From NCBI GenBank assembly GCA_016874915.1, contig VGSW01000002.1:1-55255 (forward strand): DNA of 55,255 nucleotides, written 5' to 3'. A model generated the notes under the pieces. The model searched no databases. It was not told where the DNA came from and saw nothing but the letters and a program-made list of their open reading frames with translations. The DNA comes from Deltaproteobacteria bacterium (lineage in GTDB: Bacteria; Desulfobacterota; Desulfobaccia; Desulfobaccales; 0-14-0-80-60-11). The position numbers and the translations under genes were made by a program. Positions 18,883-53,848 of this stretch are shown here, in pieces. Position 1 is the first letter of the stretch. Each line of letters opens with the position of its first letter.

Positions 18883-19866
18883 TTATGCCTCTCCGGGTGG
18901 AAACTGATGGAGCTGAGAGAGGGTGAATCCCTGAACCGGTCCGGTCTTTTGCAGCCAGGTCAGGAAAGTGCGGATTTTGTGAAGGAGTCGATGGACGGCT
19001 GCCGGGGTGGGGAATTGGGGACTGGCCCCGGGGTGGAGTTCGGAGGAGTGGAAAAACAGGTTAATCACCCTGCCGCGCCGGCGGCGGTGCAAAGACGCGG
19101 CCAACCGCATGGAGGTTAGGGGAAACCAGGCCGGCTGGGTACCGGCCGCCCCCAGATAACGGAAGGCCCAGAGAAGAAGTTCGCCCCCCTTTCTGGGAAG
19201 GGCGCGAGAAAGACGGTAAACCAGGGATGGGGCCAAGGCAAAGACCGGCACCAGGGTCAAGGGCGCCTCCCACAACTGGGGTTCAAGACCCGGCAAGGGG
19301 AAGGGGTCAGAGGGCCAGAGCAATTGCTCCAGGCCGCCCAGGTGGGGCATAAGCGGCACCATGCTGGAGTCCACCTTGAAGCCCAATTCAGGCAACAGGG
19401 ACAAAACCTGGTCACTTAAATCAAACCGCCCCATCCGGAAAGAGGTGGGAGTTACCCCCAGATTATTCTTAAGGCTGGAAAGTAAAGTGACCATCTTCTT
19501 CCGCAGCAGATCCCGGGGAAGATTCTTGGACCTCACCGGCTCCGGATAGGGCAGGTGGGCATATGGCGGGGTACTCCAGGGGTGCAGGTGAGCCCCCACC
19601 TCCGCCCCCCACCGCTCCCGCCAGTGGGCCAGAACCCGGCAGGCTTCCGGATCCCGGGATACCTGGTAGGTAACCAGAAAGGTTAGAGGAAAACCGAATT
19701 CCCGGGGGATGAACTCCAGATGCCGCAGCGCCGCCACGTTGCTCACCCCTGGCGGCGTCCTGGGGTACCTTCCCGCGAAAAGGCCCTCTTCTTCCACATC
19801 GACGCTGATTACCAGTTTCACCGTTGGTCCCGTTTCCCGTTGCCAGGTTTCAGGTTCAAGGTCCAA
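18883..19866 (-). CDS. Polysaccharide deacetylase-like (NodB/WalW-like) protein
   Basis: 327 aa. 'LVISVDVEEEG' and 'GAHLHPW' resemble the deacetylase Asp and His metal motifs. The TTG start from the track is uncertain. Confidence 0.5.
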   Translation of the reverse strand: MDLEPETWQRETGPTVKLVISVDVEEEGLFAGRYPRTPPGVSNVAALRHLEFIPREFGFPLTFLVTYQVSRDPEACRVLAHWRERWGAEVGAHLHPWSTPPYAHLPYPEPVRSKNLPRDLLRKKMVTLLSSLKNNLGVTPTSFRMGRFDLSDQVLSLLPELGFKVDSSMVPLMPHLGGLEQLLWPSDPFPLPGLEPQLWEAPLTLVPVFALAPSLVYRLSRALPRKGGELLLWAFRYLGAAGTQPAWFPLTSMRLAASLHRRRRGRVINLFFHSSELHPGASPQFPTPAAVHRLLHKIRTFLTWLQKTGPVQGFTLSQLHQFPPGEA

Positions 19867-19880
19867 AGTTCAAAGTTCAA
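19846..19880. repeat. Five tandem heptamers (GGTTTCA GGTTCAA GGTCCAA AGTTCAA AGTTCAA)
   Basis: Read directly at the 5' end of, or upstream of, the deacetylase-like gene in a divergent promoter region. The same heptamer recurs inverted at 55231-55251. Confidence 0.5.
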
Positions 19881-20045
19881 AGCAATTGCCCGAAAACCGA
19901 AGAGCTTGGCTTTCCGATATTTGCCGCCCAAACTCACCAAGTGTCAAGGGGTTTTTCTGGGAAAAGGGTTGGGGGCTTTCCTGACATTGAGGTATAATTG
20001 ATCTCTCGGGATACCGCGATATTTCGAGAAAGGTGAGAATGGCCC

Positions 20046-21176
20046 ATGAGGCATGGGGTTTCTGCCCATCACGCTTGGCCCAGACCGGCCCGGTTGGTGT
20101 TCCTGCTCCAGGATTTGCGGTTTGGGGGGACCCAACGGCAGGTTTTAGAGTTGGCCCGGGCCCTGGATGCCGCCCGGTTCCGGGTGGAGGTCTGGGTGAT
20201 GATGGCGGGAGCGGACCTGGAGCCCCTGGCCCGGACCTGGCAAATTTCGGTGGTCCGGCTGGCCCGGCAGTCCTGGGTGGGCCCCCCGGCGCTGTTCAAC
20301 TTGTGGCGCCGCCTCAAGAGCCATCCCCCGGACCTGTTCCTCTTGTTCACCGTGGTTCCCAACATTTGGGGACGAATTCTGGGCCGGCTGGTCCGGGTGC
20401 CCCTAATTGTCGGCAATTGCCGGGGCGGGGCCGCTCCCTGGCGCCAACATGAGCACTGGCTCTGGCCCCTGTCCGATCATCTCATCTGCAACTGCCAGGC
20501 TCTCAAACAAGTCCTGACACGCCGACATGGGGTGCCTGCCGACCGGGTCACGGTAGTACTTAATGGGGTGGATACGGCATTTTTCCGCCCCCCTCCCGGG
20601 GCTGGGGGGAATGGCCCCCTACGGGTGTTGTCTCTGGCCCGGTTTGCTCCGGACAAGGACCATGAGACGCTGCTCCGGGCCTTCGCCCTGGTGGCCCAAG
20701 ACTTACCGCAAACGGAATTGTGGCTGGTGGGAGAGGGCGACCAACAGGCAGTTTTGGAAAAAATGGCCTCATTGCTCTGTCCGCCCAAGTCGGTGCGGTT
20801 TTTCCCCGGACGGCCAGATGTGCGGCCGCTCCTGGAGCAGGCCAGCCTCCTGGCGCTGAGTTCCATCCACGAAGCCCTGCCCAATGTCCTCCTGGAGGCT
20901 ATGGCCGCGGGGTTGCCGGTGGTGGCGACCAAGGTGGGAGGGGTGCCTGAGGCAGTAGGGCATGGCCAAACCGGCTGGCTGGTGCCGCCCCGGGACCCGC
21001 CCGCCCTGGCCGCGGCCCTGCGGCAGTTGCTGGCCAGTCCGGAAACCCAGCAGACCTTCGGGGAGGCGGGACGGCGCAAGGCCATGGAGGTTTTTTCCCT
21101 GGAGGGCATGAGGCGCGGCTACGAAGCAGTCTTGCAACGGTTGCTACACAGCAAGTCGGGGCCTCAGCATGGTTGA
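20046..21176 (+). CDS. Glycosyltransferase family 4 (GT-B)
   Basis: 376 aa. 'FGGTQRQVLELARAL' and the C-terminal 'SSIHEALPNVLLEAMAAGLPVVATKVGGVPEAV' (E-x7-E region). Confidence 0.85.
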   Translation: MRHGVSAHHAWPRPARLVFLLQDLRFGGTQRQVLELARALDAARFRVEVWVMMAGADLEPLARTWQISVVRLARQSWVGPPALFNLWRRLKSHPPDLFLLFTVVPNIWGRILGRLVRVPLIVGNCRGGAAPWRQHEHWLWPLSDHLICNCQALKQVLTRRHGVPADRVTVVLNGVDTAFFRPPPGAGGNGPLRVLSLARFAPDKDHETLLRAFALVAQDLPQTELWLVGEGDQQAVLEKMASLLCPPKSVRFFPGRPDVRPLLEQASLLALSSIHEALPNVLLEAMAAGLPVVATKVGGVPEAVGHGQTGWLVPPRDPPALAAALRQLLASPETQQTFGEAGRRKAMEVFSLEGMRRGYEAVLQRLLHSKSGPQHG

Positions 21177-21185
21177 GGTGAATAG

Positions 21186-22355
21186 TTGAGCCATAACCCC
21201 CTTACCGGCGCGCTGGCGCTTTTGAAGCAGGTTAATCCCGGAGCCTACCTCAATGCCTTTTTGGCTTATGCCAGCGGGCGGCTCCGGGTGACCAAACCGC
21301 GCAGTCTGCCGCTGAAGCTGGACATCATCTTGACCAAGGCCTGCAACCTGCGGTGCACCTTCTGCATCTCCTATGGTTCTCTCACCGGGGAGAGGTGGAT
21401 GGATTTTGGGCTTTATGAACGCATCGCCCGCCGCTTATTCCCCACCGCCTTCTCAGTGCTGTTCTGTTCCGGCGGGGAACCGTTGCTCTATCCCCGGTTG
21501 CGCGAGGCTCTAAAGTTGGCCCAAACCCATCGCACCGCCACCATAATGGTGAGCAACGGCATGCTTTTGGACCGGGAAACGGCCCGGTGGCTTGTCGCCG
21601 ATCAGAGTCTGCACGATTTAAGAATTTCATTTGACGGGGCCAGCAAAGAAACGCTGGAAAGGATCCGGCGGGGCGCCCGGTATGAGACGATTCTGGAAAA
21701 CCTGGCCTACCTCACCCACCTGAAACGGCGACAGGGGCGCGTCTTTCCCCGATTATCCCTCCGGTATGTGGTGATGAAATCCAACGCCCCGGAGCTGCCG
21801 GAAATCTTCCGGGTCGTGGCGCCGCAGGGGGTGGAGAGAGTGGAGGCGGTCTCTCTCATTGTGGCCAATGACCTGGATTTTCAGGAGTCTCTGTTTAACC
21901 ATCGGCAGTTGGCGGCGGAGGTTTTTGCCCAGGCCCGATGCCAGGCCCGGCAATATGGCATTGCCTTGAAGCTGCCGCCATTGCCCGGGTCTGATGCCGG
22001 CAGGCGTAGATGCCGGCAGCTCTGGGAATTTTGTCAGATAGACACCGACGGTTCCATCAGGATCTGTTACCCTTCCTGGCGGCAGCGGCTGGGCTTTTTT
22101 GACGACGGGTTTGAGCGCGTCTGGCGGGGTCTGCATTATCAGCGGCTGCGGCAAACCGTGGACAGCAGCATCCCCTATTTTCCTTATTGCCGCCACTGTT
22201 ACGTACACCAGGGTTTTAATCAGAAAAGCTCCCACCACCAGGAGCTCCAGCCGGAAGCATACACCATTCCCGGCCTGGAAGACCTCCAGGTCCCCTTCAA
22301 TGAACGGCGGCAGGAAAACCTGGACGCCTGGCGGTCCCGAGAAAGGCTCCACTGA
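21186..22355 (+). CDS. Radical SAM protein with C-terminal SPASM/twitch-like Cys-rich domain
   Basis: 389 aa. 'LTKACNLRCTFCIS' (CxxxCxxC), 'SGGEPLLYP', and C-terminal Cys clusters ('CRQLWEFCQIDTDGSIRIC', 'PYCRHC'). Confidence 0.8.
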   Translation: MSHNPLTGALALLKQVNPGAYLNAFLAYASGRLRVTKPRSLPLKLDIILTKACNLRCTFCISYGSLTGERWMDFGLYERIARRLFPTAFSVLFCSGGEPLLYPRLREALKLAQTHRTATIMVSNGMLLDRETARWLVADQSLHDLRISFDGASKETLERIRRGARYETILENLAYLTHLKRRQGRVFPRLSLRYVVMKSNAPELPEIFRVVAPQGVERVEAVSLIVANDLDFQESLFNHRQLAAEVFAQARCQARQYGIALKLPPLPGSDAGRRRCRQLWEFCQIDTDGSIRICYPSWRQRLGFFDDGFERVWRGLHYQRLRQTVDSSIPYFPYCRHCYVHQGFNQKSSHHQELQPEAYTIPGLEDLQVPFNERRQENLDAWRSRERLH

Positions 22356-22405
22356 CGTCGCCGTGCCGGCGCGTTATAACGGCAACTATCCGCGGGTTGG
22401 CACGG

Positions 22406-23401
22406 TCAGGAGCCTCCTTGGAGAAGGGAAGGCGGCCTGCCGCAGATGGCAGTGATCAGGCCCCAATGCCAGCCAGCCACGGTTACCAAGAGGAAAAGCA
22501 GCCAGCGCCAGCCCCGGCGGCGGTCTCCGGTCTTGATCCAAAACCACAGGAAAGCCGCCATCCCCGGCAGGAGGAGAACCGGCCAGGTATGCGGGTTCCG
22601 GAGCAGTAAACCCAAAAGCAAAAAGGCCCCGGCCAACAGGCCCGCGGACAGGTAGTGAATCTTGCGAAAAAGACCGTATTTGCGGATGAGCGGCCACTGG
22701 CAGGCGCCGTAACGCCTGACCATCCGGGCCAGGCCCCCGTAGTTCCGGGGGCGGTAGTGGGCCACCCGGGCGGCGGGGTTGTAAAGGAGCCGATACCCCC
22801 GGCGCCGGATTCTCAGATCCAGATCCACATCCTCTCCGGGCCACAGAGACTCATCGAAGCCCCCGACTTCCTCCAGGACCTGCTTCCGGTAGGCGGCGTT
22901 GCAACTGGGGTTATGCTCCGTTTCTTCCAGGCCGGAAGAAGTCTTGATGTAGTCGGTGACAAAGCCGATGGCCTTAAAAAAAGCCTGAACCTCCTTTCCG
23001 AAATCGGTGTCGTCCGGAGGGCTGATCTGGTCGCCGCCCACGCCAGCCACCTGGGGCGTGAGGAACCCCTTTTCCAGCTCCCTTAGCCAGGCCCTATCCA
23101 CCACGCAGTCGCTGTCGGTGAAGGCGACGATGGCGCCCCGGGCCGCCTGCATGCCCAAATTACGAGCCCGGGAAGGGCCGCCCGGGGGTACCTTGATGAG
23201 CCTAACTCTGGAGTATGCGGCACAGATTTCCGAGGTGGCGTCGGTGGAGCCGTCGTCCACCACGATAACTTCGTAGGAAGGATGCTCCAGGGCGGTGGCG
23301 GCCTCCAAGCAGCAAGCCATGGTAGCCTGGGCGTTGCGGGCGGCGATAACGATGGAGAAGACGGGGTCCGGCGCCATCACTTGCCCCGCTGGGCAGCCCA
23401 C
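22406..23401 (-). CDS. Glycosyltransferase family 2 with C-terminal transmembrane segments
   Basis: 'FSIVIAARNAQ', 'VIVVDDGSTD', 'ARNLGMQAARGAIVAFTDSDC'. The more likely start is the ATG at 23377 (MAPDPVFS). Confidence 0.85.
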   Translation of the reverse strand: MGCPAGQVMAPDPVFSIVIAARNAQATMACCLEAATALEHPSYEVIVVDDGSTDATSEICAAYSRVRLIKVPPGGPSRARNLGMQAARGAIVAFTDSDCVVDRAWLRELEKGFLTPQVAGVGGDQISPPDDTDFGKEVQAFFKAIGFVTDYIKTSSGLEETEHNPSCNAAYRKQVLEEVGGFDESLWPGEDVDLDLRIRRRGYRLLYNPAARVAHYRPRNYGGLARMVRRYGACQWPLIRKYGLFRKIHYLSAGLLAGAFLLLGLLLRNPHTWPVLLLPGMAAFLWFWIKTGDRRRGWRWLLFLLVTVAGWHWGLITAICGRPPSLLQGGS

Positions 23402-23853: not shown

Positions 23854-26037
23854 CTAACGCCGTTCCAGCCGCAGCAGCACCGAAGCGCCCTGGTCGTCCA
23901 GGACGGTGGCTTTCAGGCCGTCCAGGGGCGGCGGCAGCAGATGAGCTGAATCAAAGGAAAAGGCCACCCGGCCGGTAACTGGGTCTTTGGCCATCACGGT
24001 CACCACTGCTTTGTGGGCCCAGGGCCAGCGATGAGTCGAATCTCCCAGGTTGATTCCGCCGATGGCCAGCCGGTGGGGTGTCTGGGGAAAGATGACCCGG
24101 TATCCCAGGATATGGTGGGCCTGGCTCCACGGGAACTCCACCCAGCCGCTCCAGTTCGCTGCCACCGAGGTTTTCGCCGCGGCCGCATGGGGAGCCGGAT
24201 GGGGACCGGTGAGGGGGCGGCATTGGAGTTCGGCGGGGCCGCCGGGATTACTTACCCATACCCTCAAAAAGGCAGGCCGCGGTCCCTCTTGGGGTTCCAC
24301 TTGCAGCCACCGGAAGTCCGCGGCTTCTAAAGATCCGCTCCGGCCCAGAGGCTCGTAATTTCTACCCCGGTGCAGGGGGGAATAGTGAAACTGGGGGCCG
24401 GTGACGCACCGATCCTTTTCGTCCAACCCTGCCAGGGCGGGATGGAAAACTATCGGGTTATAGGCCACCGCAAAGCGGATATCCGGCCGGGAGAGCCATT
24501 TCCCAACCCCTTCCGTATCTTGGAAGGCCGGATGGGAATACACCGCGCCCCGTTGCATGGCCCCGTGGGCAAAATAATAGCCCATGGGTAGCAAGGCGGT
24601 GTAAAGCACCCGGTCCCCGGGCCGGGATTCTTCCAGCAACCGCCGGGGCTGCCGGGAGGCGAAAGTCAGAGACTGCCGGAGGCTCATATGCTCCCGGGTG
24701 GCATAAAGCTGTTCGCCTCCGGCCAGGACCATATTCCCCATATACCCCACCATTACGGCCAGGGCCAGGACAGGCCAGTAGGCCGCCAGTCCCTTGGCCC
24801 CTGTAGAATCGGGGTCCTCATGGCGGGCTGCCCAAAGAGCCAGGCAGCCGCGCCCGGCATAAGCCACCGTCTGCCCCACTGCGCCGAAAAGGGCCGCTGC
24901 CAGGGGGATCCACATGCGGAAGAACAGGTCTCCCGGACCGGAAAACAGGTCGCGGTGAAAGAGAGTTGCCAGCAGAACCAGGGGATAAAACGTCAGGAAC
25001 CGGCGGATCACCAAGCGCCGCTCCTCCGGGGCGGTGAGGTATCCCAAGGCGGAGGCCAGGCAAAACAGCGGCAAAGAGCCGAAGAAACCATCCTTCAGCC
25101 GGACTATCTCCGGGAAGAGGCCCATGAGGTTGGCCAGGAAGGCGGCGCCCAGGCCGCGGCCCAGGAGGATGATCCGGAGAAAAGCCAAGGAGTCGAATAT
25201 AGGAGGCTTCTTCAAGATTGCCGCCAAGACCAGGATGGCGCCGAGAAGGGCGGCGGCCGCGGCCATAGCCCATTTCATGCGGCGGGGGGTCTGCCCTGGC
25301 GCGGCCAGCCAGGCCATGATGATGCTGATGAGGGCATAGACACCCCCCAGAGGATGGATGGCGGCCAGGGGGAGGGTGCTCAGCACCAGGACCCAGGGGG
25401 CATTGCCCCGGCGGACGATAAGCCGGGCCCACACCAACAAAGCCAAGCCCAGGGCCAGGTTAGAGGGAGTGCAATAAAGCAAACCGGAATCCGGAAAGAC
25501 CTTGAAGGCCAGGAGCGCCAGGCCGATACCGGCTGCGCTACGGCCCCAGAGGCTGGCCAGGAAGCAACTGAAGGACAATCCGAAGAAAATCGGACTGCCC
25601 CCCCATACCACCTTGTAGGCAGAAAACAAATCGCCGGTCAAGCGGCTGACGCCCAGCAGAAGTAAAGAGAACAGGGGATGGTAAAAGGCGAAAGGAAAAC
25701 TGGCCAGTTGGCGTTGCCGCAGGGCTTCCGGGTCGGCCACCGGCTCGGAGAATTGCTCCCGTAAATCTATAAGTGCTGGACAATCCTGAAAGAAACACTC
25801 CTTTAGCTGGGCGGTGCGCACCAGGTAGGCCAGGCTGTCGTCCGCCTCGGGGGGCAAGGCCCGGTTCCACAAGGGAGGCAGAATGACCAGGCTCTGCACC
25901 GTCACATAGAGGAGCAGGCCCAGAAGGAGAACCCACCAGGACAGGGTCTGCCTGGCCCGGGGCGAGGTGTCCAGGGTTATAAGCAGTCGCGTGCCGGAGT
26001 CTCGGGCCCGGTTAAGGAACGCGGACAAGAAATTCAT
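23854..26037 (-). CDS. Large polytopic membrane protein with C-terminal soluble domain (possible GT-C-type glycosyltransferase or polymerase)
   Basis: 727 aa. Many hydrophobic segments occupy the first ~430 residues, followed by a hydrophilic C-terminal ~300 residues. It is the last gene of the exporter operon. The functional call is inference only. Confidence 0.4.
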   Translation of the reverse strand: MNFLSAFLNRARDSGTRLLITLDTSPRARQTLSWWVLLLGLLLYVTVQSLVILPPLWNRALPPEADDSLAYLVRTAQLKECFFQDCPALIDLREQFSEPVADPEALRQRQLASFPFAFYHPLFSLLLLGVSRLTGDLFSAYKVVWGGSPIFFGLSFSCFLASLWGRSAAGIGLALLAFKVFPDSGLLYCTPSNLALGLALLVWARLIVRRGNAPWVLVLSTLPLAAIHPLGGVYALISIIMAWLAAPGQTPRRMKWAMAAAAALLGAILVLAAILKKPPIFDSLAFLRIILLGRGLGAAFLANLMGLFPEIVRLKDGFFGSLPLFCLASALGYLTAPEERRLVIRRFLTFYPLVLLATLFHRDLFSGPGDLFFRMWIPLAAALFGAVGQTVAYAGRGCLALWAARHEDPDSTGAKGLAAYWPVLALAVMVGYMGNMVLAGGEQLYATREHMSLRQSLTFASRQPRRLLEESRPGDRVLYTALLPMGYYFAHGAMQRGAVYSHPAFQDTEGVGKWLSRPDIRFAVAYNPIVFHPALAGLDEKDRCVTGPQFHYSPLHRGRNYEPLGRSGSLEAADFRWLQVEPQEGPRPAFLRVWVSNPGGPAELQCRPLTGPHPAPHAAAAKTSVAANWSGWVEFPWSQAHHILGYRVIFPQTPHRLAIGGINLGDSTHRWPWAHKAVVTVMAKDPVTGRVAFSFDSAHLLPPPLDGLKATVLDDQGASVLLRLERR

Positions 26038-26063
26038 GGGATTCGGGTCGAATGCCCCCAGCC

Positions 26064-27239
26064 TTATTCATAGCGGATGGCATCCACCACTTCCATGCGG
26101 CTGGCATGCAGAGAAGGGTAAAATCCGGCGCCCAGCCCCAGGATCAGGGCGAAGAGGAAGGTCAATCCCAGACAGCCCCAAAACACCTCGGCGGGAGGGG
26201 GGGAGTCGATGACCCATCCCATGACCGCCACGATCAACCGGGCCAGGACCGCCCCGGCCACGAAGGCGACGCAGCTCAACAGGATGGCCTCCGTGAGAAA
26301 TTGTGCCAGAATATCCTTGTCTTCGGCTCCCAGAGCCTTTTTCAGGCCAATTTCCCTGGTCCGGCTCCGCACGGCCGCCATCATGACATTCCAGATGCCC
26401 GCTCCCCCTAGGATAAAAGTGGCGCCGATGGCCAGATAGATAAAGAATTCGGTCCACCAGAACACCCGCTGCACCCGCCTTAACCCCTCCCAGGGGACAT
26501 GGACCCGCAGATACTGGGCGGACTGGTATTGCTGCACCACTTCGGGCACCGCGGCGGCAACCGCGGGCACATCATCTGAGGTTATGCAGCGGAGATAAAG
26601 CCGGTCCGTCAGGACGACCCCTGGAAACCTGTCCAGGACGGTGGTCAAGGGGAGGAAGGCGCAGTCGGACAAACCCAGGTCCGTAATGCCTCCCAGTACC
26701 CCGGTGACCTCGTAGCCTTCTTTATAAATTTCCAGGGTCTGGCCCTTTAGTTGGTAGTTTCCGAAAATCCTATCGGCCAGGGTGGCTCCCAGGACACATT
26801 CCCGCTTCCGGGCGGCTACGGTTTCGGAGGTGAACAGGCTTCCGGTCAGGGCCCAGAAACTGCGCACCGCCCAGAAATGTTCATCCACGCCCACCACTGG
26901 GAAGCGATATTCCCGGCCCCCGGAGAGATTGGTTTTTCCTCCCGTGGAGGCCACCAGGCTGACTCGCATCACTCCCGGCAATTGGCGCAGGGCGTCCACC
27001 GCCGCGGCCTGGAAAGATTGGGGCCAGGGGGCCAGGGCGTTGTCAAAATAGACCCGCATCACCGTGACCCCCCCGATGAGGTTCAGGTCTTTATGCAGGT
27101 TCCGCTTGAAGTCCCGGCTCATGGTGATCATGGTAATGAGCCCGGCAGTGCCCAGGGCGATGGCCAGGACTACTCCCAGATAGCGCCGTTGGCGCAGGAG
27201 CTGGCGGGTACTGACGTAAAGCAGGTCAACAAAATGCAC
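26064..27239 (-). CDS. ABC transporter permease, FtsX/MacB/DevC type
   Basis: 391 aa. An N-terminal TM segment is followed by a periplasmic domain. The FtsX motif 'IGLKKALGAEDKDILAQFLTEAILLS' is followed by 3 C-terminal TM segments. Confidence 0.85.
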   Translation of the reverse strand: MHFVDLLYVSTRQLLRQRRYLGVVLAIALGTAGLITMITMSRDFKRNLHKDLNLIGGVTVMRVYFDNALAPWPQSFQAAAVDALRQLPGVMRVSLVASTGGKTNLSGGREYRFPVVGVDEHFWAVRSFWALTGSLFTSETVAARKRECVLGATLADRIFGNYQLKGQTLEIYKEGYEVTGVLGGITDLGLSDCAFLPLTTVLDRFPGVVLTDRLYLRCITSDDVPAVAAAVPEVVQQYQSAQYLRVHVPWEGLRRVQRVFWWTEFFIYLAIGATFILGGAGIWNVMMAAVRSRTREIGLKKALGAEDKDILAQFLTEAILLSCVAFVAGAVLARLIVAVMGWVIDSPPPAEVFWGCLGLTFLFALILGLGAGFYPSLHASRMEVVDAIRYE

Positions 27240-48100: not shown

Positions 48101-51100
48101 GCTCCCCCTGGGGCTTGAGCCCGCGGCCATGGCCGGCCACAGCCTGGGAGAGCTCACGGCTCTGGCCTGCGCCGGAGTTTTTTCCTGTGAAGACGGCTTC
48201 CGGCTGGTAAACAAGCGGGCCCAGTGCATGGACCAAGCCTCCGCCCTCCACGCGGACCCCGGCATCATGATCGCCACCGACGCCCCCCTGGATCTGGTGG
48301 AGAGAGAGGTCCGGGGGCGGGACGGCGTCTATTTCACCAACTACAACGCCCCCCAACAGGTGGTGTTGGGGGGAAGTACCCAGGCTCTCCTATCCCTGCG
48401 GGAGGAAATCAAGACCCGGGGATACCGGGCCACTCAGCTGCGGGTGAGCATGGCCTTTCACTCGCCGATGATGCGGGTCATCCGGGACGAGCTGGAAGAA
48501 TTCGTCAGCCACATCGCCTTCCATCCTCCCCGCATCCCGGTGATCTCCAACACCACCCGGCTGCCATATCCCTCGGACCCGGTGGAGATCAAGAAGACCA
48601 TCATGGCCCATCTGGAGTCGCCGGTCCACTGGATGGAGAACGTTCGGACCCTATGGCGGGACTACGGCATCCGGTTTTTCCTGGAGGTGGGACCTGGGGA
48701 CACGTTGAGCAATCTCATCAGTCAAACCCTGGAAGAACCCCAGTGCCTCCCCACCTGCCTGCCCCAGGCCGAGGCCCACACCTTCAAAACCGCTGTGGCC
48801 CAACTCCTGGCCGGGGGGCATCTTCCGGCTCCCCGGCCGATGTTACGGTTATCCATTGCTCCGGCCCCTAAACTCCAGCCGGTATCTCCGGCTCCCGCGG
48901 GGGCCAGCCCTGACCCGGTGGGGAGCATCATCCAGCGGGAGATCAACGCCTTTGTTTTGAAGACTTTCGGGGAGGTTCTGAAGCCGGACCTTATTCAGGC
49001 CCTTCGCCGGGAGTACGATCCCCGATTCTCGGAAGAAAGCCTGGAACGCTATTTAAATTCTTGGAGTTCGCTCCCGGTGCGGTCCCCGGACCCGGCACCG
49101 GGAGCAGCGGCTGTGGTCCCCCAGGCCATACCGCCGCCGGCGACTTCTCCGCCGGAAGAGGGAGCGGACCTCCTGGAAGAGGTTATCGGCCTCATCATGG
49201 CGGCCACCGGCTACGAGCGGGATGAAATCGAGCCGGACATGGACCTCCGGGCCGACCTGGCCATCCGCTCCAGCCGCATTCCCGTCATCATGGACGCCGC
49301 GGAAACCAGGTTCGGCATCCAGATCAAGCTGGAGGACTTCCTGAAGGTGCGCACGGTCCGGGATCTGGCCGTCCGCCTCCATGAGGTCATAGTTCGAAGC
49401 GGAGACCAAGGCGCTTCCGGGGTCACAATTTCTATGCTGACAAGTCCTTCGGCACCGGGTGTGGCCCCCCAGCCCGGAGCCGCAAAGCCCTTGAAACGGC
49501 TGGCATTCTCCTCCGCCCCCCTCCCCTCCAGCAGCAGCCCCAGGCCCTTGGAGTTTCAGACCTCGGATACCCTGGCCATCCTCACCCTTAAGGGGGATTC
49601 GATCCTGGGACGAAATGTCCAGGAGTTTTTCAGCCGAGAATATGGGGCGGCGACTCTACCGGTGGCCATGCTAGGAAAACCCGGCTCCGAAACTCTGGGG
49701 TTTGATTTGCGCGCTCCGGAAGAGGTCCGGAAGGCGGTGGCGCGGTTAGTTCAAGAAACCTCCCTGGCTGGCCTCCTGTTCGTTCTGGACGAGACGCTGA
49801 ACGAAGAACTCCAGGATGGGGCCGACCTCACCCCCGTGCTGACCGGCTGCTTTGCCCTGGTGCAGGCCCTTGCCGCCTCGCCTCACAAGAAACTGGCCCT
49901 GGCTCTATACGCCGGGGCTGAAGGGGCCCCTGGCAACATCTTGATTCAAGGGCTTTTGGGGATGTTCCTCACCGCCGCCCTGGAGTATCCCGAGGTCCAG
50001 TTCCGCACCTTGAGGGTGGATCACGAAACCGATCTTCCCCTGGCTCTGCGTCAATCCCTGGACCTTAACCAACCGGTTATCGACACCATCTACCGACAGG
50101 GCGCGGCTTTCACTTTAAAAGGACGAGTAGCCCTCCTGGACGGGAGCAAGGCCGCCGGTCTGGTTCTGAATCCGGGAGAGGTGGTGGTGTTCTCCGGGGG
50201 CGGCTACGGCGTCACCGCCCACCTGGTCCGAAGCCTGGCGCCTTTCCAGCCCCGGGTAGTCCTCCTGGGACGCACCCCCACCGAGTTCGACCCGGAAATC
50301 AACCGGCTGCTTCTGGCGCCGGAGCCGTCGGAGAAGGCTCTCCGCTGGGAGATAATGAAACGCCGGCCGGACATCTCCCGGGAGGACTTAACCCGGGAAA
50401 TGTCGCGTCTCCTCCAGGCCCGCACCGTGCTTAAAACTCTTGACGACCTCAGGGCCGGGGGGGTGGAGGTGGCTTATTACACTTGTGATGTCACGGACCC
50501 GGGGCAGGTTATGGGCGTCATCCAGGAGATCGGGCAACGTTATGGCCCCATTGCCGGCATCGTCCACGGCGCCGGGATTCTCCGGGACGGCCTGCTGTCC
50601 CACATGTCCCCGGAAGAGTTCGCCGCGGTGTGCCGGGTCAAATTCCTGGGGGCCTTGAATCTCTTTACCGCGGCCGCCCCCGCGGAGCTCCGGTTCCTGG
50701 TGGCCCTCTCCTCGGCCGCCGCCATTCAGGGCAACCGGGGCCAGGCCAACTATACCGCCGCCAACCGCATGATGTCCGCGCTCCTGGAGGACCTCCGGAG
50801 AAGACACCCCCACCTGCAGTGCAAGGCCCTGATGCTGCCTCCCGTGAGCGGGTCGGGCATGGCCGCCGATTCCCAAGTCCGCCGTTTTCTGGAGAAGATG
50901 GGGGTGGGCTATGTTGAACCTGAAGAAGTTGCGGAACTTTTTCGCCAGGAACTGTTTTTAGGGAAGGCCCAAGACGTCTGGGCAATGTTCATGACCCAGA
51001 TGCCCAATATCCCCCAGGTGGCCCTGGATACCACTTCTCCGGCCCCTGAGCCAAAATTCCTGCAGGTCCAGACCATGAGTTTTCCGGCCCCTAATTTTCC

Positions 51101-52004
51101 CCTGGTGGACACTGTCCTGGAAGCGGATTACCAGGAGGGGCTATTAAGGGCGGCCCGAACCTTCTCCTGGGAAAGGGACTTGTGGCTCCCGGACCACAAA
51201 CCCTTTAAGTTTCTCAAGCATCCCCTGGTCTCCACCATCATGGCCTTAGAGGCTTTCATGGAGGCCTCCCGGCTCCTTTATCCTCATCTGCAGGTGCGGG
51301 GAGTGCGCCAGGCCGAGTTCCGGGAGATCATCGAGTGTCCTCTTGACGCCTCCGTGACGTCGGAGATCACCTGCCGCGGTCATCAGGAATCCGGGGGAGT
51401 AATCTGCCGGCTCACGTTGGAAACTCCCCTGCTGTCTCCCTCGGGAAGAGTCCTGGACCAAAAGGCGCTCAACTTCCGAGCCCAGGTGATCCTGGACGGG
51501 GGGGCCTCGCCCCGGTGGCCGGAAATACCCGGATTTCCCGTGAACCTGAAGGACCTGGACACCCGTCCCGCCGGGTTAGCGGAAATCTCCGGATGGTATG
51601 ACAAACATACCGACATGCAGGGCCGTTACCGGGTGGTGGAGCATCTGGACGGCTCCGGCCCGGAAAAAGCCCGGGGCGCCATGACCTATCGGGACAGTCA
51701 AGATTTCTCCACTCCCGGCGCCCCCGTCCGGCAGTATCCCGCTTATATTCTGGAAGGAGTCATGCATCTGGTGAATTTTTATTACAGCATGAGGGATGAA
51801 GATAACCCCCGCACTCTGATCCCCGTGGGCATCCAGGAGATGGTCTTTTCCCGCCCGTGCCGGGATGGGGAAAAGATCATTCTGGAGGCATTGTTGCGGG
51901 AAGAGGACCCCAAAGGGGTGATCTGGGACGCGCGGGCCTTGGATGCGGAAGGCCAGCCCCTGATGATGGTGGCGGGGCTCCGGATGCAGTGGTTCAAGGA
52001 GTAA
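44121..52004 (+). CDS. Type I PKS/FAS-like megasynthase: NMO-like (degenerate) - NMO/FabK-type enoyl reductase - KS - AT - ACP - KR - DH
   Basis: 2627 aa. The domain motifs were all read directly and are listed in the domain features below. Confidence 0.9.
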   Translation: MDFHHERQIIATVWRPEEISPGVVHMARATGTKTIFDLSQADIAACRPALRAAAGGDAAFLKISPAALMDDSLSGLLQAANINGIFVEIHPLLLDGDPGRFLSRLEEMSERFLAIPILSDVGLIFQAWDRYPGLTHMALKGCEAAGLVSTESIFSLYSALRDRFREREEGPALYIWGGVATPEAAAAFLSSGARGIVLESLHWLTDLVQGGEPARQGLAKLRPDHTQLVGLNLEAPYRVFNKGNSLAVRDLQEWAASGPGGGSREHRRAFVHKAAQEAVHPLASRFHRDELIPLGVEAAFAQEFADRYGAATEAALTGFLEDVASQCSRAPEKARAFLESPVAAELGRRYPFIQGAMTWITDVPAFAREVADAGGLPTLALGLMDPKVLEEKWGGLQEVMGDRPFAVNLIALPENPHRDHQLAWIIERRPRFAVIAAGDPHYGAQLRQHGLEVMYLAPNEDLIRLAGAAGIRYLILEGNEAGGHVGPHTTLSQAQIALSLKRREPDLLKDRRIILAGGIYNRETAFMAAMLGADAIQMGTAYLATREMVATGALTALYQQMILKALPGDTAVTGEAAGLRVRSLKTPIIDRVAALERDFLAQKEDETSFRQKMEALAAGSLLIAARGLDGPDGPVLPEESCLSQGQFMSGACAGAINRVQTVADLHRDLAEGPLSLSRVDLQPGPYPDRRTARAKSPGRERLAITGMSLVNALGNSPEEVWAASLAMQSGITWVPPERWDHLVYYDPRPRTPEKTYCRVGAFHRLEIHRKDLGIAPQDFRTMTQATRLTLWLAARAIGQSGILDADIPPERIAVLISQNSGEAAATLRDLIVRGSLEEIFHSISQVIPLSPELKEALAREVKSGRLAIDDTTLLGRLNCTAAGFITQKYGFQGPSYAVSAACATSLVALYSAIQMIRNGVIDAAIVGGGEENLTPMHFLEFSALGALAGISEQECHPAESSRPFDRTRDGMVLGEGGAMIVVERESLARRRGARVHAYITAAGASNSHQGLVESSREVQEIAIRASFDDAPYGPEAVDLVECHATATFQGDVEEVHALKTFFQGKSRTVLSSFKSQIGHNLGASGLNSLIRGITAMRAKTFPPTLNYQNPDPEMAIEGSGLLVATEPLDWPSPNGLPRRFQVNSFGFGGSNYVMHLEESLEEGDAVLVSPPEVLPPAESPVPEGGELQGIACFQTTLDGAPYRVAVVADSPAEARSRAEKILSQATPGISAKTLRMLGRQGLFLGAAEEEIPPLALVFPGQGAQYQGMGHELYRAFPVIRHWLDRAAAWADFDLLSLLFHDREEDLQKTRWQQPATFSLELAMAQHLLPLGLEPAAMAGHSLGELTALACAGVFSCEDGFRLVNKRAQCMDQASALHADPGIMIATDAPLDLVEREVRGRDGVYFTNYNAPQQVVLGGSTQALLSLREEIKTRGYRATQLRVSMAFHSPMMRVIRDELEEFVSHIAFHPPRIPVISNTTRLPYPSDPVEIKKTIMAHLESPVHWMENVRTLWRDYGIRFFLEVGPGDTLSNLISQTLEEPQCLPTCLPQAEAHTFKTAVAQLLAGGHLPAPRPMLRLSIAPAPKLQPVSPAPAGASPDPVGSIIQREINAFVLKTFGEVLKPDLIQALRREYDPRFSEESLERYLNSWSSLPVRSPDPAPGAAAVVPQAIPPPATSPPEEGADLLEEVIGLIMAATGYERDEIEPDMDLRADLAIRSSRIPVIMDAAETRFGIQIKLEDFLKVRTVRDLAVRLHEVIVRSGDQGASGVTISMLTSPSAPGVAPQPGAAKPLKRLAFSSAPLPSSSSPRPLEFQTSDTLAILTLKGDSILGRNVQEFFSREYGAATLPVAMLGKPGSETLGFDLRAPEEVRKAVARLVQETSLAGLLFVLDETLNEELQDGADLTPVLTGCFALVQALAASPHKKLALALYAGAEGAPGNILIQGLLGMFLTAALEYPEVQFRTLRVDHETDLPLALRQSLDLNQPVIDTIYRQGAAFTLKGRVALLDGSKAAGLVLNPGEVVVFSGGGYGVTAHLVRSLAPFQPRVVLLGRTPTEFDPEINRLLLAPEPSEKALRWEIMKRRPDISREDLTREMSRLLQARTVLKTLDDLRAGGVEVAYYTCDVTDPGQVMGVIQEIGQRYGPIAGIVHGAGILRDGLLSHMSPEEFAAVCRVKFLGALNLFTAAAPAELRFLVALSSAAAIQGNRGQANYTAANRMMSALLEDLRRRHPHLQCKALMLPPVSGSGMAADSQVRRFLEKMGVGYVEPEEVAELFRQELFLGKAQDVWAMFMTQMPNIPQVALDTTSPAPEPKFLQVQTMSFPAPNFPLVDTVLEADYQEGLLRAARTFSWERDLWLPDHKPFKFLKHPLVSTIMALEAFMEASRLLYPHLQVRGVRQAEFREIIECPLDASVTSEITCRGHQESGGVICRLTLETPLLSPSGRVLDQKALNFRAQVILDGGASPRWPEIPGFPVNLKDLDTRPAGLAEISGWYDKHTDMQGRYRVVEHLDGSGPEKARGAMTYRDSQDFSTPGAPVRQYPAYILEGVMHLVNFYYSMRDEDNPRTLIPVGIQEMVFSRPCRDGEKIILEALLREEDPKGVIWDARALDAEGQPLMMVAGLRMQWFKE
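45170..46100 (+). other. Domain: NMO/PfaD/FabK-type enoyl reductase
   Basis: 'FIQGAMTWITD', 'GGLPTLALG', 'ILEGNEAGGHVG', 'AGGIYN...GADAIQMGTAYLAT'. Confidence 0.75.
46215..47600 (+). other. Domain: ketosynthase
   Basis: 'AVSAACATSLVAL' (Cys), 'ECHATATFQGD' (His), 'KSQIGHNLGASG' (His), 'FGFGGSNYVMHLE'. Confidence 0.9.
47880..48720 (+). other. Domain: acyltransferase
   Basis: 'FPGQGAQYQGMG', 'GHSLGE', 'AFHSPMM'. Confidence 0.9.
49165..49385 (+). other. Domain: single acyl carrier protein with atypical Ser motif
   Basis: 'DMDLRADLAIRSSRIPVIMDAAETRFGIQI' occupies the place of the canonical DLG.DS(L/I) motif. Confidence 0.65.
50180..50900 (+). other. Domain: ketoreductase (catalytic subdomain)
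   Basis: 'VVFSGGGYGVTAHLVRSLA' (Rossmann), 'IVHGAG', 'SSAAAIQGNRGQANYTAANR' (Y-x-x-x-N). Confidence 0.8.
51100..52001 (+). other. Domain: PKS-type dehydratase (double hot-dog)
   Basis: 'LWLPDHKPFKFLKHPLVSTIMALEAFMEA' (His motif region) and 'YPAYILEGVMHLV' (compare LDxxxQ/H). Confidence 0.6.
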
Positions 52005-52011
52005 AGTTGCC

Positions 52012-52746
52012 ATGATCGGCTTTCTCCCCACATCGATTTCAGCCCTGTTGCCGGGATCTTCCGGGGGCGCCGGCGTCAGTGGCGTTGGGTTGGAGGTCCT
52101 GACCCCCTTCCCCCATGGAGGGCTCATTCTGGTGGCATCCATGGAACTGTTCCCGGAATGGCCGCAAAACCCCCAGCACTGCCGTTTTTTTCAGGACCCA
52201 AAAGATTTTTTGGCTAATTACCTGTGGCGGGAGTGGATGGCCCGGGTGGGTGGCCATGGCAGCCCTGGCGATCCCGGACTCCAGCCCGGTGAGGTCGTCC
52301 TGGCCGCAGACAACTTGGGCAAACCATTCCTCCGGGGAGCACCCCACCCGGCTCCGGCTATCTCTTTCAGCCGGGGCGGCAGCCGCTTATGGGCCGCCCT
52401 GGGGGGCGCGCCCTCCGGATTGGGGCTGGATGCCGCTTCATCTCGGGAATTCGCCGGCGGGTATCCCTGGCATCGGGTCTTTCATGACCTGGAACTGGAG
52501 CATAGCCAAAAATATACCGGGGGTGATCGGCCGGAGGCCGCCGCGCTCTTGTGGTCCGCCAAGGAAGCCGCGGTGAAATCCCTGGGCTGCGCCTTCCACT
52601 TTTTCGGCCCTCGGCATCTCCGGGTCAGGTTCGCCGGACCATGGCCCCAGGGCCTTCTCTGGCAGGTGATCCTCTCCGGCGTCGGGGTAGTCCGCGGCGC
52701 CTCCCTGCGCCGGGAAGGCGTCTGGCTTTCCCTGGCCCTGGGCTGA
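52012..52746 (+). CDS. Sfp/HetI-type 4'-phosphopantetheinyl transferase
   Basis: 244 aa. 'WSAKEAAVKSLG' (the W/F-x-x-KE-A-x-x-K motif). It starts 8 nt after the megasynthase stop. Confidence 0.8.
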   Translation: MIGFLPTSISALLPGSSGGAGVSGVGLEVLTPFPHGGLILVASMELFPEWPQNPQHCRFFQDPKDFLANYLWREWMARVGGHGSPGDPGLQPGEVVLAADNLGKPFLRGAPHPAPAISFSRGGSRLWAALGGAPSGLGLDAASSREFAGGYPWHRVFHDLELEHSQKYTGGDRPEAAALLWSAKEAAVKSLGCAFHFFGPRHLRVRFAGPWPQGLLWQVILSGVGVVRGASLRREGVWLSLALG

Positions 52747-52771
52747 GAGGCTTCCCATTAACATGAAGCTA

Positions 52772-52846
52772 TTGCAAAAGTAATTTTGAAGGAAGGGCCG
52801 GGGGATAACCAATCCCCCGCCCTCCCCCAGAATCCTTTCGTAACAG
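52772..52846. repeat. REP-like GC-rich palindromic element, copy c (about 75-bp imperfect palindrome)
   Basis: TTGCAAAAGTAATTTTG-AAGGAAGGGCCGGGGGA-TAACCAA-TCCCCCGCCCTCCCC-CAGAATCCTTTCGTAACAG. Confidence 0.6.
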
Positions 52847-52870
52847 TCTCAACATGAAGGAATTAATCCC

Positions 52871-53848
52871 ATGCGCGCCTTGGTGACCGGGGCCAGCGGG
52901 TTCATCGGCAGCCACCTGGTGGAACGCCTGCTGGCCGAAGGCGCCCAGGTCAAGTGCCTGGTGCGCCGCCACAGCAATCTCCGCTGGCTGAAGAACCTGC
53001 CCGTGATCCTGTCCCCGGGGGACTTCCAGGACCCGGCCTCCCTGGCGCGAGCCGTGAGGGACGTGGAGGAAGTCTATCATGTGGCCGGGGCCACCCGGGC
53101 GGCCCGGCGGGCGGAATATTTTCGGGCCAATCATCAGGCCACCGTAAATCTCCTGAGAGCCTGCCGGGACCATGGCCCCCCCGGGCAAAAGTTCATTTTC
53201 ATCTCCAGCCTGGCCGCCGCCGGTCCCAGCGCCGGTGAGCCTCTCGCCGAGGATACACCCTCCCGCCCGGTGTCCGCTTACGGCGCCTCCAAGCTCCTGG
53301 CGGAGCAGGCGGTCCTAAATTTCAGCCGGCAGCGCTCCGCCACCATCATCCGCCCCCCGGTGGTGTACGGGCCTCGGGATCAGGAGGCCCTGCTTCTGTT
53401 CCGGAGCGTCCAACGGGGCTTCCATATCATCCCGGGCCGGGGGGCCCAGCGGTTGAGCCTGGTGCATATTCAGGACCTGGTGGCCGGCATTTTGCTGGCC
53501 TCCCGACGGGCTCAAGGCCGGGGCGAAATTTATTACCTTTCGGGAGAACAGGATTGCGATTGGCAGGATCTGGGGGAGTGCCTGGGCCGGGTCCTGGGCC
53601 GCCGGGTTCGCACTCTTTACGCGCCCGGCTGGATGATCCACCTGGCGGGCCTGGCCGGCTCCGCCATCTCCCAGTTGTCCCGTACTCCGGCCCTTTGGAA
53701 CCTGGACAAGGTGAAAGAAATAAGGCAGACCTACTGGCTCTGCAGTTGCCGGAAAGCCCGGATGGAATTGGGATTCCAACCGGTCATGGATCTAAGCGAG
53801 GGATTGACCGCCACGGCCGCCTGGTACCGCCGGATGGGCTGGCTTTAG
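52871..53848 (+). CDS. NAD(P)-dependent epimerase/dehydratase-family SDR
   Basis: 325 aa. 'LVTGASGFIGSHLVERLL' (GxxGxxG), 'YGASK' (YxxxK). Confidence 0.9.
   Translation: MRALVTGASGFIGSHLVERLLAEGAQVKCLVRRHSNLRWLKNLPVILSPGDFQDPASLARAVRDVEEVYHVAGATRAARRAEYFRANHQATVNLLRACRDHGPPGQKFIFISSLAAAGPSAGEPLAEDTPSRPVSAYGASKLLAEQAVLNFSRQRSATIIRPPVVYGPRDQEALLLFRSVQRGFHIIPGRGAQRLSLVHIQDLVAGILLASRRAQGRGEIYYLSGEQDCDWQDLGECLGRVLGRRVRTLYAPGWMIHLAGLAGSAISQLSRTPALWNLDKVKEIRQTYWLCSCRKARMELGFQPVMDLSEGLTATAAWYRRMGWL

Follow-up and report, generated by a model that had tools for sequence, protein, structure and literature searches.

Bacterial ceramides are made by three enzymes, the serine palmitoyltransferase Spt, the N-acyltransferase bCerS and the reductase CerR, encoded in Caulobacter (CC_1162, CC_1154 and CC_1164), E. 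coli B and Streptomyces, and this chemistry is already known. Sphingolipids are abundant in anoxic waters and sediments, where anaerobic producers and pathways have been inferred only from homology to these three proteins; Desulfobacterota are predicted to be sphingolipid producers from the same genes (PMC11334938). How sphingolipids reach the outer membrane in bacteria is a stated open question (PMC11087976). Here, we describe a locus located between positions 18883 and 53848 of a 55,255-nt stretch of DNA (contig VGSW01000002.1, hereafter the window) from an uncultured, sulfate-reducer-type Desulfobacterota bacterium of a freshwater metagenome sample. Judging by alignments and profile scores, this locus carries a member of each enzyme family needed for the bacterial ceramide pathway: an Spt-clade alpha-oxoamine synthase (AOS), a bCerS/YghO-family N-acyltransferase (GNAT1) and a CerR-like short-chain dehydrogenase/reductase (SDR). 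We consider it fairly probable that the locus is a ceramide-like (sphingolipid-type) biosynthesis, decoration and export cluster with a dedicated megasynthase. An initial annotation of this DNA had stated that it matches no recognised pathway, which was wrong: it corresponds to the bacterial ceramide pathway, and PfSgaAB provides a precedent for leading a polyketide synthase (PKS) product into sphingolipids (PMC12134224).

PfSgaAB, known from Pseudomonas fluorescens MYb115 and Burkholderia, combines an iterative type I PKS with an Spt-active AOS that together make long-chain sphinganines, and PKS-derived sphingolipids were shown in this way in Pseudomonas in 2025. The PKS and AOS genes form an adjacent two-gene unit there, the chain is released without a thioesterase step, the reductase of PfSgaABC is KDSR-like, and no ceramide-synthase gene is mentioned in the accessible part of the report (PMC12134224). 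The window likewise encodes an iterative type I PKS, an Spt-type AOS and an SDR, but it differs in that its PKS is syntenic with a bCerS-family GNAT, its AOS is part of a separate exporter operon and its reductase is CerR-like (epimerase family).

The ArsA/ArsD fatty acid synthase (FAS) of the Azotobacter/Beijerinckia ars clusters is a single protein of similar length to the window megasynthase; in Beijerinckia, no thioesterase is annotated beside the gene, a gene of the phosphopantetheinyl transferase (PPTase) family lies nearby and glycosyltransferase (GT) and ABC transporter genes lie downstream. Miyanaga and co-workers reportedly found, in 2008, that the C22-C26 acyl chains of ArsA stay bound to its acyl carrier protein (ACP) and are handed straight to the downstream enzymes. 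In the ars system, the acceptors are the type III PKSs ArsB and ArsC (phenolic lipids), whereas the window encodes an N-acyltransferase and an AOS instead. Finally, the ceramide locus of E. coli B (spt-acpR-epi-aasR/yghO) encodes the small AcpR and AasR, both of which the window lacks. Unlike in Spt-bCerS-CerR operons, the N-acyltransferase of the window is adjoined by a type I FAS of 2627 aa, which includes an ACP, and by a PPTase; its AOS heads a tripartite-exporter operon, and its lineage has two bCerS paralogues (GNAT1 and GNAT2).

Ceramide-type enzymes of the locus

The AOS (31600-32865, minus strand; aminotransferase class I/II) reached 412 bits with the NCBIfam Spt model SerpalmtaseCFB, compared with 327 bits for BioF, 304 for Kbl and 199 for the CqsA-type model. 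Among proteins of the PDB, it scored highest with the Spt of Sphingobacterium multivorum (329 bits), whereas all non-Spt proteins reached 225 bits or less, among them the cysteate acyltransferase CFAT (225), Kbl (200) and BioF (174). It could be aligned with Spt from end to end, and the pyridoxal phosphate-binding lysine and the histidine motifs are kept, so that its initial description as Spt-like, rather than BioF- or Kbl-like, is borne out. It resembles Spt of the Bacteroidota/delta-proteobacterial type, and its start codon in the source annotation lies 3 codons downstream of the longest-ORF start. A Rhodobacterial Spt system with AcpR and AasR was rejected for the window, with no small ACP or acyl-ACP synthetase gene near the AOS and no free-standing ACP or acyl-AMP ligase among the window open reading frames (ORFs); that canonical layout was found in an E. 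coli locus (L085).

GNAT1 (42896-44032, plus strand; 378 aa) belongs to a group of more than 2800 homologues in Thermodesulfobacteriota that are mostly unnamed or called 'acyl-CoA N-acyltransferase'. Pfam produced just a sub-threshold match to Acetyltransf_6, and a sequence search of the PDB gave noise only. The link to bCerS was found by tblastn against annotated plasmid and chromosome records: GNAT1 shares 33% identity with E. coli YghO over its full length (383 columns, pairwise E 8e-64) and 37% with the 'GNAT family N-acetyltransferase' of a Streptomyces operon, whose gene sits between those of an AOS and an epimerase/dehydratase. In E. coli, yghO adjoins aasR-epi-acpR-spt, and this gene (ECD_02850) is the counterpart of Caulobacter aca/CC_1154, which encodes the N-acyltransferase required for dihydroceramide synthesis (PMC9386255). 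From these homologies and the equivalence of yghO and CC_1154, GNAT1 can be assigned to the bCerS family, in agreement with the initial proposal.

The SDR (52871-53848, plus strand) is an extended SDR of the NAD-dependent epimerase/dehydratase family (Pfam). It shares 38% identity with the reductase of the same Streptomyces operon (E 1e-45), a value close to those of the AOS (38%) and GNAT1 against their own Streptomyces counterparts, and 27% with the E. coli 'epi' protein (E 4e-31). The likeness to CerR suggested earlier is supported as a resemblance to the epimerase-family reductases of canonical Spt-bCerS-CerR operons. Since the SDR superfamily is broad (the best NCBIfam match is HpnA-like, 160 bits), we consider its identification as CerR to be probable only.

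The megasynthase and its conserved neighbours

The megasynthase (44121-52004, plus strand; 2627 aa) is predicted by Pfam to be an iterative type I FAS/PKS with, in this order, an N-terminal region without match, an enoyl reductase (ER) of the NMO/FabK type, ketosynthase (KS), acyltransferase (AT), one ACP, ketoreductase (KR) and the N-terminal half of a PS-DH domain; no thioesterase domain was detected by Pfam. The AT motif GHSLG, the KR tyrosine and the KS residues Cys-His-His are present, the latter missed by strict motif patterns and recovered by looser ones, and the ACP serine is found in an unusual context (LAIRSS). Among annotated proteins, the megasynthase is closest to the ArsA-like PKS encoded on Beijerinckia indica pBIND02, with 29% identity over residues 139-2272. 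After the gene for that PKS, pBIND02 carries two type III PKS-like genes and then genes for an ArsD-like protein of the PPTase family, a GT and an ABC transporter, an arrangement corresponding to Type P of Shulse and Allen (PMC3098273). On the basis of this homology, we classify the megasynthase as an ArsA-like type I FAS. It differs from ArsA in that its ER is fused N-terminally, after an additional conserved domain of ~340 aa without Pfam match.

This additional domain (residues 1-340, window 44121-45140) is conserved across relatives and has no Pfam match even at E 10; by eye, the motifs GGVATPEAAAAFL and LKGCEAAG resemble a second, divergent NMO/FabK-like barrel preceding the recognised ER. 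Two other assignments were rejected: an Ars-type system proper, because the megasynthase is homologous but no type III PKS is encoded in the window, and a polyunsaturated fatty acid synthase (Pfa), with a score of 422 bits for the PfaA model (cut-off 1010), a single ACP and no PfaB- or PfaC-like gene in the window.

An alignment of the N-terminal 700 residues of the PKS, searched against one genome per GTDB species, detected relatives in 325 species genomes of Desulfobacterota and Nitrospirota, assigned by their record titles to Desulfobaccales, Desulfomonilaceae, Syntrophaceae/Syntrophobacterales, Desulfobacteraceae, Desulfuromonadales/Geobacter and Nitrospirota (Thermodesulfovibrionales). 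We then compared all window proteins by tblastn with 80 retained loci of these genomes in a neighbourhood matrix. GNAT1 is located directly 5' of the PKS in 49 of the 67 loci with enough upstream sequence, the PPTase directly 3' in 53 of 55, and an SDR orthologue adjoins GNAT1-PKS in 12 loci. These genes form a conserved module, hereafter module B, which corresponds to GNAT1-PKS-PPTase with or without the SDR. In the window, the coding region of GNAT1 ends 88 nt upstream of the PKS, and the PPTase (52012-52746, plus strand; Sfp-type 4'-phosphopantetheinyl transferase, Pfam ACPS) starts 7 nt past the PKS stop. An ABC-type gene often follows the PPTase in relatives, paired in L003 with a gene for an ABC-2 membrane subunit.

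The absence of a detectable thioesterase domain makes a direct hand-off from the megasynthase ACP the simplest model and, by analogy with ArsA, a likely one, and the near-invariant GNAT1-PKS-PPTase linkage makes the bCerS-family GNAT1 the likeliest recipient of the chain. GNAT1 is thus favoured over the AOS as recipient, and the megasynthase chain more probably ends as an amide-linked acyl group than as the long-chain base. Since the PKS has the GNAT, and not the AOS, as its invariant partner, there is less support for the order proposed in the initial annotation, a 'PKS-primed' condensation with an amino acid.

Of the 80 genome loci, only four have an AOS gene at a distance of ~10 kb or less from the PKS N-terminus. 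In L027/L084, a B12-binding radical S-adenosylmethionine (SAM) gene, GNAT2, HlyD, TolC, ABC, FtsX and AOS genes diverge from a GNAT1-sulfotransferase-PKS-PPTase-SDR series. The Desulfuromonadales locus L073 has the order SDR-AOS-GNAT1-lipoprotein-PKS-PPTase-ABC, with similar arrangements in L082 (Syntrophaceae) and L083 (Geobacter). The single supercluster of the initial annotation is thus matched in part: AOS/exporter genes stand beside GNAT-PKS-PPTase-SDR in a second lineage, without the GT block, but the blocks are separate in most relatives. In the closest relative (L087, ~87-90% identical), genes for GT4b, the GT21-like enzyme, the 327-aa CE4-fold protein, Glyco_trans_1_3, Wzx and the B12 radical SAM protein (all described below) stand beside GNAT1-PKS-PPTase, interleaved with APS (adenosine 5'-phosphosulfate) kinase and sulfotransferase genes.

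A sulfotransferase gene, usually with an APS kinase gene, is found inside the clusters of the closest relatives (L001:11235-13166; L084:11245-12339, sulfotransferase only; L087:4393-6219), either between GNAT1 and PKS or among the GT genes; neither gene was found in the window. Relatives may thus differ in whether their head groups are sulfated or glycosylated, so that close relatives would display natural head-group variation. In loci labelled Nitrospirota, Geobacter and Desulfuromonadales, a conserved protein of ~280 aa that is absent from the window is encoded between GNAT1 and PKS (L053:9048-9893, L043:9047-9892, L073:9074-9907, L083:4005-4931 and L062:9129-9974). It exhibits a lipobox-like N-terminus (…AGC…) in L062, L073 and L083 and a cysteine motif, 'NNCT' or 'YNCT', in all, and may be an NlpC/LRAT-like acyl hydrolase or transferase. 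In L084, a long-read metagenome-assembled genome (MAG), PKS (L084:12785-20318) and TolC (L084:3977-5354) are each split in two calls, most likely by assembly frameshift errors and not by real gene fission.

The AOS-exporter operon and the glycosylation genes

The AOS is the first gene of a minus-strand operon that also encodes a LolD/MacB-type ABC ATPase (30800-31558; Pfam ABC_tran), a TolC-like outer-membrane factor (29415-30803; OEP, two stretches), a HlyD-family periplasmic adaptor (28490-29566; HlyD_3 and HlyD_D23), a GT2 enzyme (27269-28459), a MacB-type permease (26064-27239; MacB_PCD and FtsX) and, as its last gene, a 727-aa membrane protein (23854-26037). According to the source gene calls, these genes overlap or are 20-54 nt apart, which agrees approximately with the gaps of at most 41 nt reported initially. 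The run comprises seven genes up to a 452-nt gap before another GT2 gene (GT2a, 22406-23401, minus strand; Pfam Glycos_transf_2), and the eight genes of the initial annotation are reached only by counting GT2a.

The ATPase, OEP/TolC, HlyD and MacB_PCD/FtsX families all score above the Pfam gathering thresholds, and we assign the exporter genes on this basis to a MacB-type (type VII) tripartite ABC machine. Machines such as DevBCA-HgdD and MacAB-TolC/LolCDE similarly bring together a separate ATPase, a MacB_PCD/FtsX permease, HlyD and a TolC-like channel, and the link to a lipid pathway is shared as well. The window exporter differs in scores below the MacA, MacB and LolD cut-offs (for the ATPase, LolD 205 bits, MacB 196 and DevA 160, each under its cut-off) and in a gene order that varies among relatives. 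The analogy to heterocyst glycolipids drawn earlier holds only for the exporter type; a heterocyst-glycolipid system as such was rejected, with subunits missing and scores far under the cut-offs for DevA (160 versus 296 bits), DevB (23 versus 129) and DevC (20 versus 290).

Metagenome contigs were also searched with an AOS alignment, and the loci obtained were analysed with the same neighbourhood matrix. All loci of sufficient length with an AOS identity of 59% or more carry the AOS-FtsX-ABC-TolC-HlyD set; the AOS and its MacB-type ABC/FtsX-HlyD-TolC exporter thus constitute a second conserved module (module A). Permease orthologues (45-61% identical) adjoin the AOS in ~35 loci, and the HlyD and TolC genes are kept in the AOS operons of relatives. 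More distant AOS matches (43-45%) show a plain AOS-GNAT(-SDR) arrangement. In the metagenome scan, none of the ~40 loci with the closest AOS matches has a PKS within 10 kb.

The exporter set is usually followed by the second bCerS paralogue, GNAT2, which is ~32% identical to GNAT1; both are about equally far from YghO and from the Streptomyces enzyme. GNAT2 ends the AOS-exporter operon in L084 (L084:1855-2940), L093 (L093:2799-3938) and ~20 metagenome loci (e.g., L097:15581-16699). The window has no GNAT2, and a GT2 gene is inserted in its operon instead.

In MAG173, the two modules are carried by one contig, ~80 kb apart. Module A is represented there by GT1_3, GT4, radical SAM/SPASM, the 327-aa protein homologue, GT2, AOS and the exporter, and module B by B12 radical SAM-GNAT1-APS kinase-sulfotransferase-PKS-PPTase-SDR. 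The modules are adjacent in the window and in a few lineages, and ~80 kb apart or unlinked in most relatives; in the window itself, the AOS is located ~11 kb from the PKS on the opposite strand. The window thus corresponds to a fused arrangement in which GNAT2 has been lost and sulfation genes are absent. These genes are also found grouped in other, independent genomes and metagenomes, and their grouping is not a chance juxtaposition.

Several glycosylation and tailoring genes recur beside module A. Homologues of the 327-aa protein (47-64% identical) are found near AOS operons in nine metagenome loci, as well as in MAG173 and in the GT block of L087, and GT21 and Wzx together (45-52%) near AOS operons in four loci. 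Glyco_trans_1_3 and the B12 radical SAM protein (52-53%) are other recurrent neighbours of the AOS, and orthologues of the 727-aa protein (45-46%) lie beside AOS operons in L093, L118 and L119. This AOS-centred synteny indicates that the genes for the GTs, the flippase and the deacetylase are part of the AOS-exporter block and not of an unrelated exopolysaccharide locus, and that the PKS block is a separate module, adjacent only sometimes. Their inclusion in the system by the initial annotation is supported, as orthologues recur beside the AOS-exporter operon or the GNAT-PKS core.

The 727-aa protein has no Pfam match and belongs to a small family (64 clusters, all named ones from Desulfobacterota). 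Its AlphaFold2 model (pLDDT 88.6) matches STT3, AglB, ALG9 and ALG12 with a Foldseek probability of 1.0 and ArnT with 0.99, and residue D67, in an 'EADD' segment, is at least 90% conserved; the protein is thus predicted from its modelled fold to be a membrane GT of the GT-C type. Characterised GT-C members use polyprenyl-phosphate-linked sugars outside the cytoplasm. Two genes upstream, the operon GT2 has a C-terminal transmembrane domain (PF26629 GT2_TM_C in the source annotation, several predicted segments) and scores best, below each cut-off, with AglJ (146 bits), PpgS (79) and the Und-P-Ara4FN transferase (43), which marks it as a putative polyprenyl-phosphate sugar synthase of the AglJ/PpgS/ArnC-like type.

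The 327-aa protein (g01, 18883-19866, minus strand; 312 aa, 18883-19821, in the source gene call) has no sequence match in Pfam, NCBIfam or the PDB and has more than 1100 family members at 60-65% identity in Desulfobacterota. Its AlphaFold2 model (pLDDT 87.6) is similar to CE4 polysaccharide deacetylases, including ArnD (8t0j; Foldseek E 1e-9, TM-score ~0.6). We predict from this model a deacetylase-like protein with a CE4 fold; residues D8, E10-E12, H78 and H80 are invariant, which is suggestive.

Together, the operon GT2, g01 and the GT-C protein look like a trio of the Arn/NaxD type. In ArnC/ArnD/ArnT and FlmF2/NaxD/FlmK, a de-N-acylated amino sugar is placed on a lipid. These lipid A systems have the same three parts as the window, with similarity at the level of fold and family only; the Arn and Flm trios belong to lipid A loci, whereas that of the window lies in or beside a sphingolipid AOS-exporter operon, a gene context that favours a sphingolipid as acceptor.

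Among the remaining glycosylation genes, the GT2/GT21-like membrane GT (38082-39248, plus strand; Pfam Glyco_transf_21, E 1e-7) is distantly HpnI-like (75 bits, NCBIfam cut-off 310), with orthologues upstream of AOS operons in L109, L113, L121, L123 and L130 (36-52%) and in L087 (88%). The flippase of the Wzx/MOP family (39342-40730, minus strand; Polysacc_synt and Polysacc_synt_3) has orthologues that accompany GT21 near AOS operons and in L087. The GT called GT28-like in the initial annotation (36965-38017, minus strand) is a GT-B protein of the MJ1255/VC2487 family (Pfam Glyco_trans_1_3, 255 bits), with orthologues in L087 and L123 and the same Pfam family called in L175. GT4b (35728-36948, plus strand; Pfam) has a 93% identical orthologue in L087, and GT4a (20046-21176, plus strand; Glycos_transf_1 and Glyco_transf_4) remains under all NCBIfam equivalog cut-offs. 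The B12-binding radical SAM protein with DUF4070 (40940-42535, minus strand; Pfam) is encoded divergently from GNAT1; its orthologues (49-53%) lie beside GNAT1 in L001, L006 and L079, near AOS operons in L095 and L107, and in L084 at the end of the AOS-exporter operon, opposite GNAT1. Two radical SAM/SPASM proteins (21186-22355, Pfam Radical_SAM and SPASM, and 34285-35703, Pfam; both plus strand) are also encoded, and a gene of this type adjoins the g01 homologue in MAG173. An OmpW/Opacity-like outer-membrane beta-barrel protein (33020-33889, minus strand; OMP_b-brl) has no counterpart beside the AOS or the PKS in the relatives examined, and its membership of the system is uncertain for this reason.

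The E. coli locus L085 (NZ_MG591698.1 846-19964) shows a different neighbourhood: spt-acpR-epi-aasR/yghO is flanked by genes annotated as LptF, LptG and 'lipopolysaccharide biosynthesis protein', which may represent another, Lpt-like way of moving sphingolipids.

Proposed pathway, alternative readings and genomic setting

All mechanistic steps beyond family membership are inferred from homology and gene context. An acyl thioester and an amino acid, either serine or one related to it, would be condensed by the AOS into a 3-keto long-chain base. The PPTase would activate the megasynthase, which would build a long, mostly saturated chain and, having no detected thioesterase domain, keep it on its single ACP; GNAT1 would take this chain directly from the ACP and N-acylate the base, and the SDR would reduce the 3-keto group. 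Sugar head groups could be added in the cytoplasm by the GT21-like, GT4 and Glyco_trans_1_3 enzymes and the product flipped by Wzx, and the GT2/CE4/GT-C trio could add a (de-N-acetylated) sugar on the periplasmic side. The B12 radical SAM protein probably C-methylates or otherwise tailors the lipid, and the ABC/FtsX-HlyD-TolC machine would extract it from the inner membrane and deliver it to the outer membrane.

Several observations weigh against this pathway. Most relatives carry the PKS and AOS modules at unlinked sites, and a Desulfomonilaceae-like clade has PKS-PPTase without an adjacent GNAT (the 18 GNAT-less loci are mostly MAGs labelled Desulfomonilaceae and Syntrophaceae). GNAT2 is usual in the AOS operon of relatives, so that ceramide formation may not need the PKS module, and the amine acylated by GNAT1 could be another one. 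With 412 bits, the AOS stays short of the 640-bit equivalog cut-off of the NCBIfam Spt model, and its amino-acid substrate is thus not fixed. The canonical dehydratase (DH) motif HxxxGxxxxP was not found in the megasynthase, which makes DH activity uncertain. The GTs all score far below any equivalog cut-off, and the acceptor of the GT2/CE4/GT-C trio could be lipid A or a different molecule.

The strongest alternative, which we regard as unlikely but worth serious consideration, is the order suggested by PfSgaAB: the megasynthase chain would go to the AOS and be released by decarboxylative condensation with serine, the base would be PKS-derived, and GNAT1 would use ordinary acyl-CoA or acyl-ACP. 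Such an order has a precedent in the PKS and Spt-active AOS that make long-chain sphinganines (PMC12134224), and in the preference of Rhodobacterial Spt for acyl-ACP from a dedicated ACP (PMC9386255). It would also fit a PKS without detected thioesterase domain and the apparent single operon of AOS, GNAT1 and PKS in L073, L082 and L083. The scarcity of AOS genes near the PKS argues against it when set beside the frequent abutment of GNAT1, as do the AOS orthologues that sit in their own exporter and GNAT2 operon with no PKS within 10 kb and the distance and opposite strand of the AOS in the window. For the same reasons, an immediate PKS-AOS pairing of the PfSgaAB type was rejected for the window.

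It is appreciably less probable that independent systems are simply juxtaposed, i.e., a sphingolipid AOS-exporter operon, an unrelated set for envelope polysaccharide or lipid A (GTs, Wzx, GT-C and CE4) and a type I FAS with a general-purpose or 'secondary lipid' role whose product goes elsewhere, for instance into bulk fatty acids or, via GNAT1, another N-acyl amino lipid. GT2/CE4/GT-C trios of the Arn and NaxD/FlmK type modify lipid A, which counts for this reading, together with the separation of modules A and B in most relatives, the clade with PKS-PPTase and no GNAT, and the lack of conserved linkage of the outer-membrane barrel protein and several GTs. A similar synthase of Desulfobacterium autotrophicum has moreover been proposed as a possible core FAS by Shulse and Allen (PMC3098273). 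However, the tight cross-phylum linkage of GNAT1-PKS-PPTase and the bCerS homology of GNAT1 argue for a dedicated amide-lipid role, the SDR and AOS genes join the GNAT1-PKS-PPTase operon in several lineages, and GT21, Wzx, CE4, GT-C and B12 radical SAM genes recur specifically beside AOS operons or GNAT1, in varied arrangements, which is unexpected for an unrelated exopolysaccharide locus.

Least probable, by a little, is a product that is not serine-derived, such as a cysteate-derived sulfonolipid resembling capnine, a 1-deoxy base built on alanine or glycine, or some other N-acyl aminoketone: the sub-cut-off Spt score, the second place of cysteate-C-fatty-acyltransferase among solved groups (225 bits), the sulfur-activation genes of near relatives and the correlation of Black Sea (sulfono-)1-deoxyceramides with Desulfobacterota (PMC11334938) would all agree with it, but characterised Spt remains the best AOS match by ~100 bits, sulfotransferases make sulfate esters and not sulfonates, and a sulfonolipid route within the window itself was rejected, neither sulfotransferase nor APS kinase having been found there.

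Returning to the ceramide-like pathway with direct transfer to GNAT1, its extension to the relatives is more tentative. A ceramide logic shared by at least 325 Desulfobacterota and Nitrospirota species, in which an ArsA-like FAS hands an ACP-bound chain to a bCerS-family GNAT, an unclassified GT-C decorates the lipid periplasmically and a MacB-HlyD-TolC machine exports it, is possible but, on balance, doubtful. If true, bacteria would have in this machine a first candidate for a sphingolipid exporter, and the locus and its relatives provide a concrete, conserved candidate operon for it, headed by Spt. The widespread bCerS-megasynthase-PPTase module suggests a new route of acyl-chain supply, and the small unclassified GT-C family with its Arn-like partners may glycosylate sphingolipids outside the cytoplasm. 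A limited literature search, which is weak evidence, found no description of a bCerS-type I FAS-PPTase module, of an Spt-headed MacB/HlyD/TolC operon, of the second bCerS paralogue, of the GT-C family, of an Arn-like trio linked to sphingolipid genes, or of a PKS-sphingolipid cluster in Desulfobacterota, Geobacter or Syntrophobacter. Among anaerobes, this version of the pathway is widespread.

The ORF listing of 18883-53848 contains 22 substantial ORFs, with hardly any non-coding space, which we assigned to families by Pfam and NCBIfam profile searches of the window proteins. All families of the initial annotation are present where it placed them, but its count of 24 genes was too high, and of its two further GT2 enzymes, just GT2a exists besides the exporter-operon GT2 and the GT21-like enzyme. 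To the right, an ArsC-like gene (54705-55136) starts the flank. No feature was assigned to the 850-nt stretch that separates it from the SDR; the ORF at 54018-54545 (minus strand), whose translation of 175 aa has no matches and a high content of Arg, Pro, Gly and Ser, is probably non-coding.

The left flank (window 1-18534) looks like an integrated mobile island. It encodes a Type ISP restriction-modification enzyme (4875-8372), a DnaB-like helicase (12874-14133) and a tyrosine integrase (17347-18534); no tRNA gene is present at the integrase junction. The JGI freshwater metagenomes 3300020084 and 3300020109 also contain this DNA. In other samples, the contigs of this organism stop shortly past g01, the leftmost gene of the locus, which is consistent with a variable junction.

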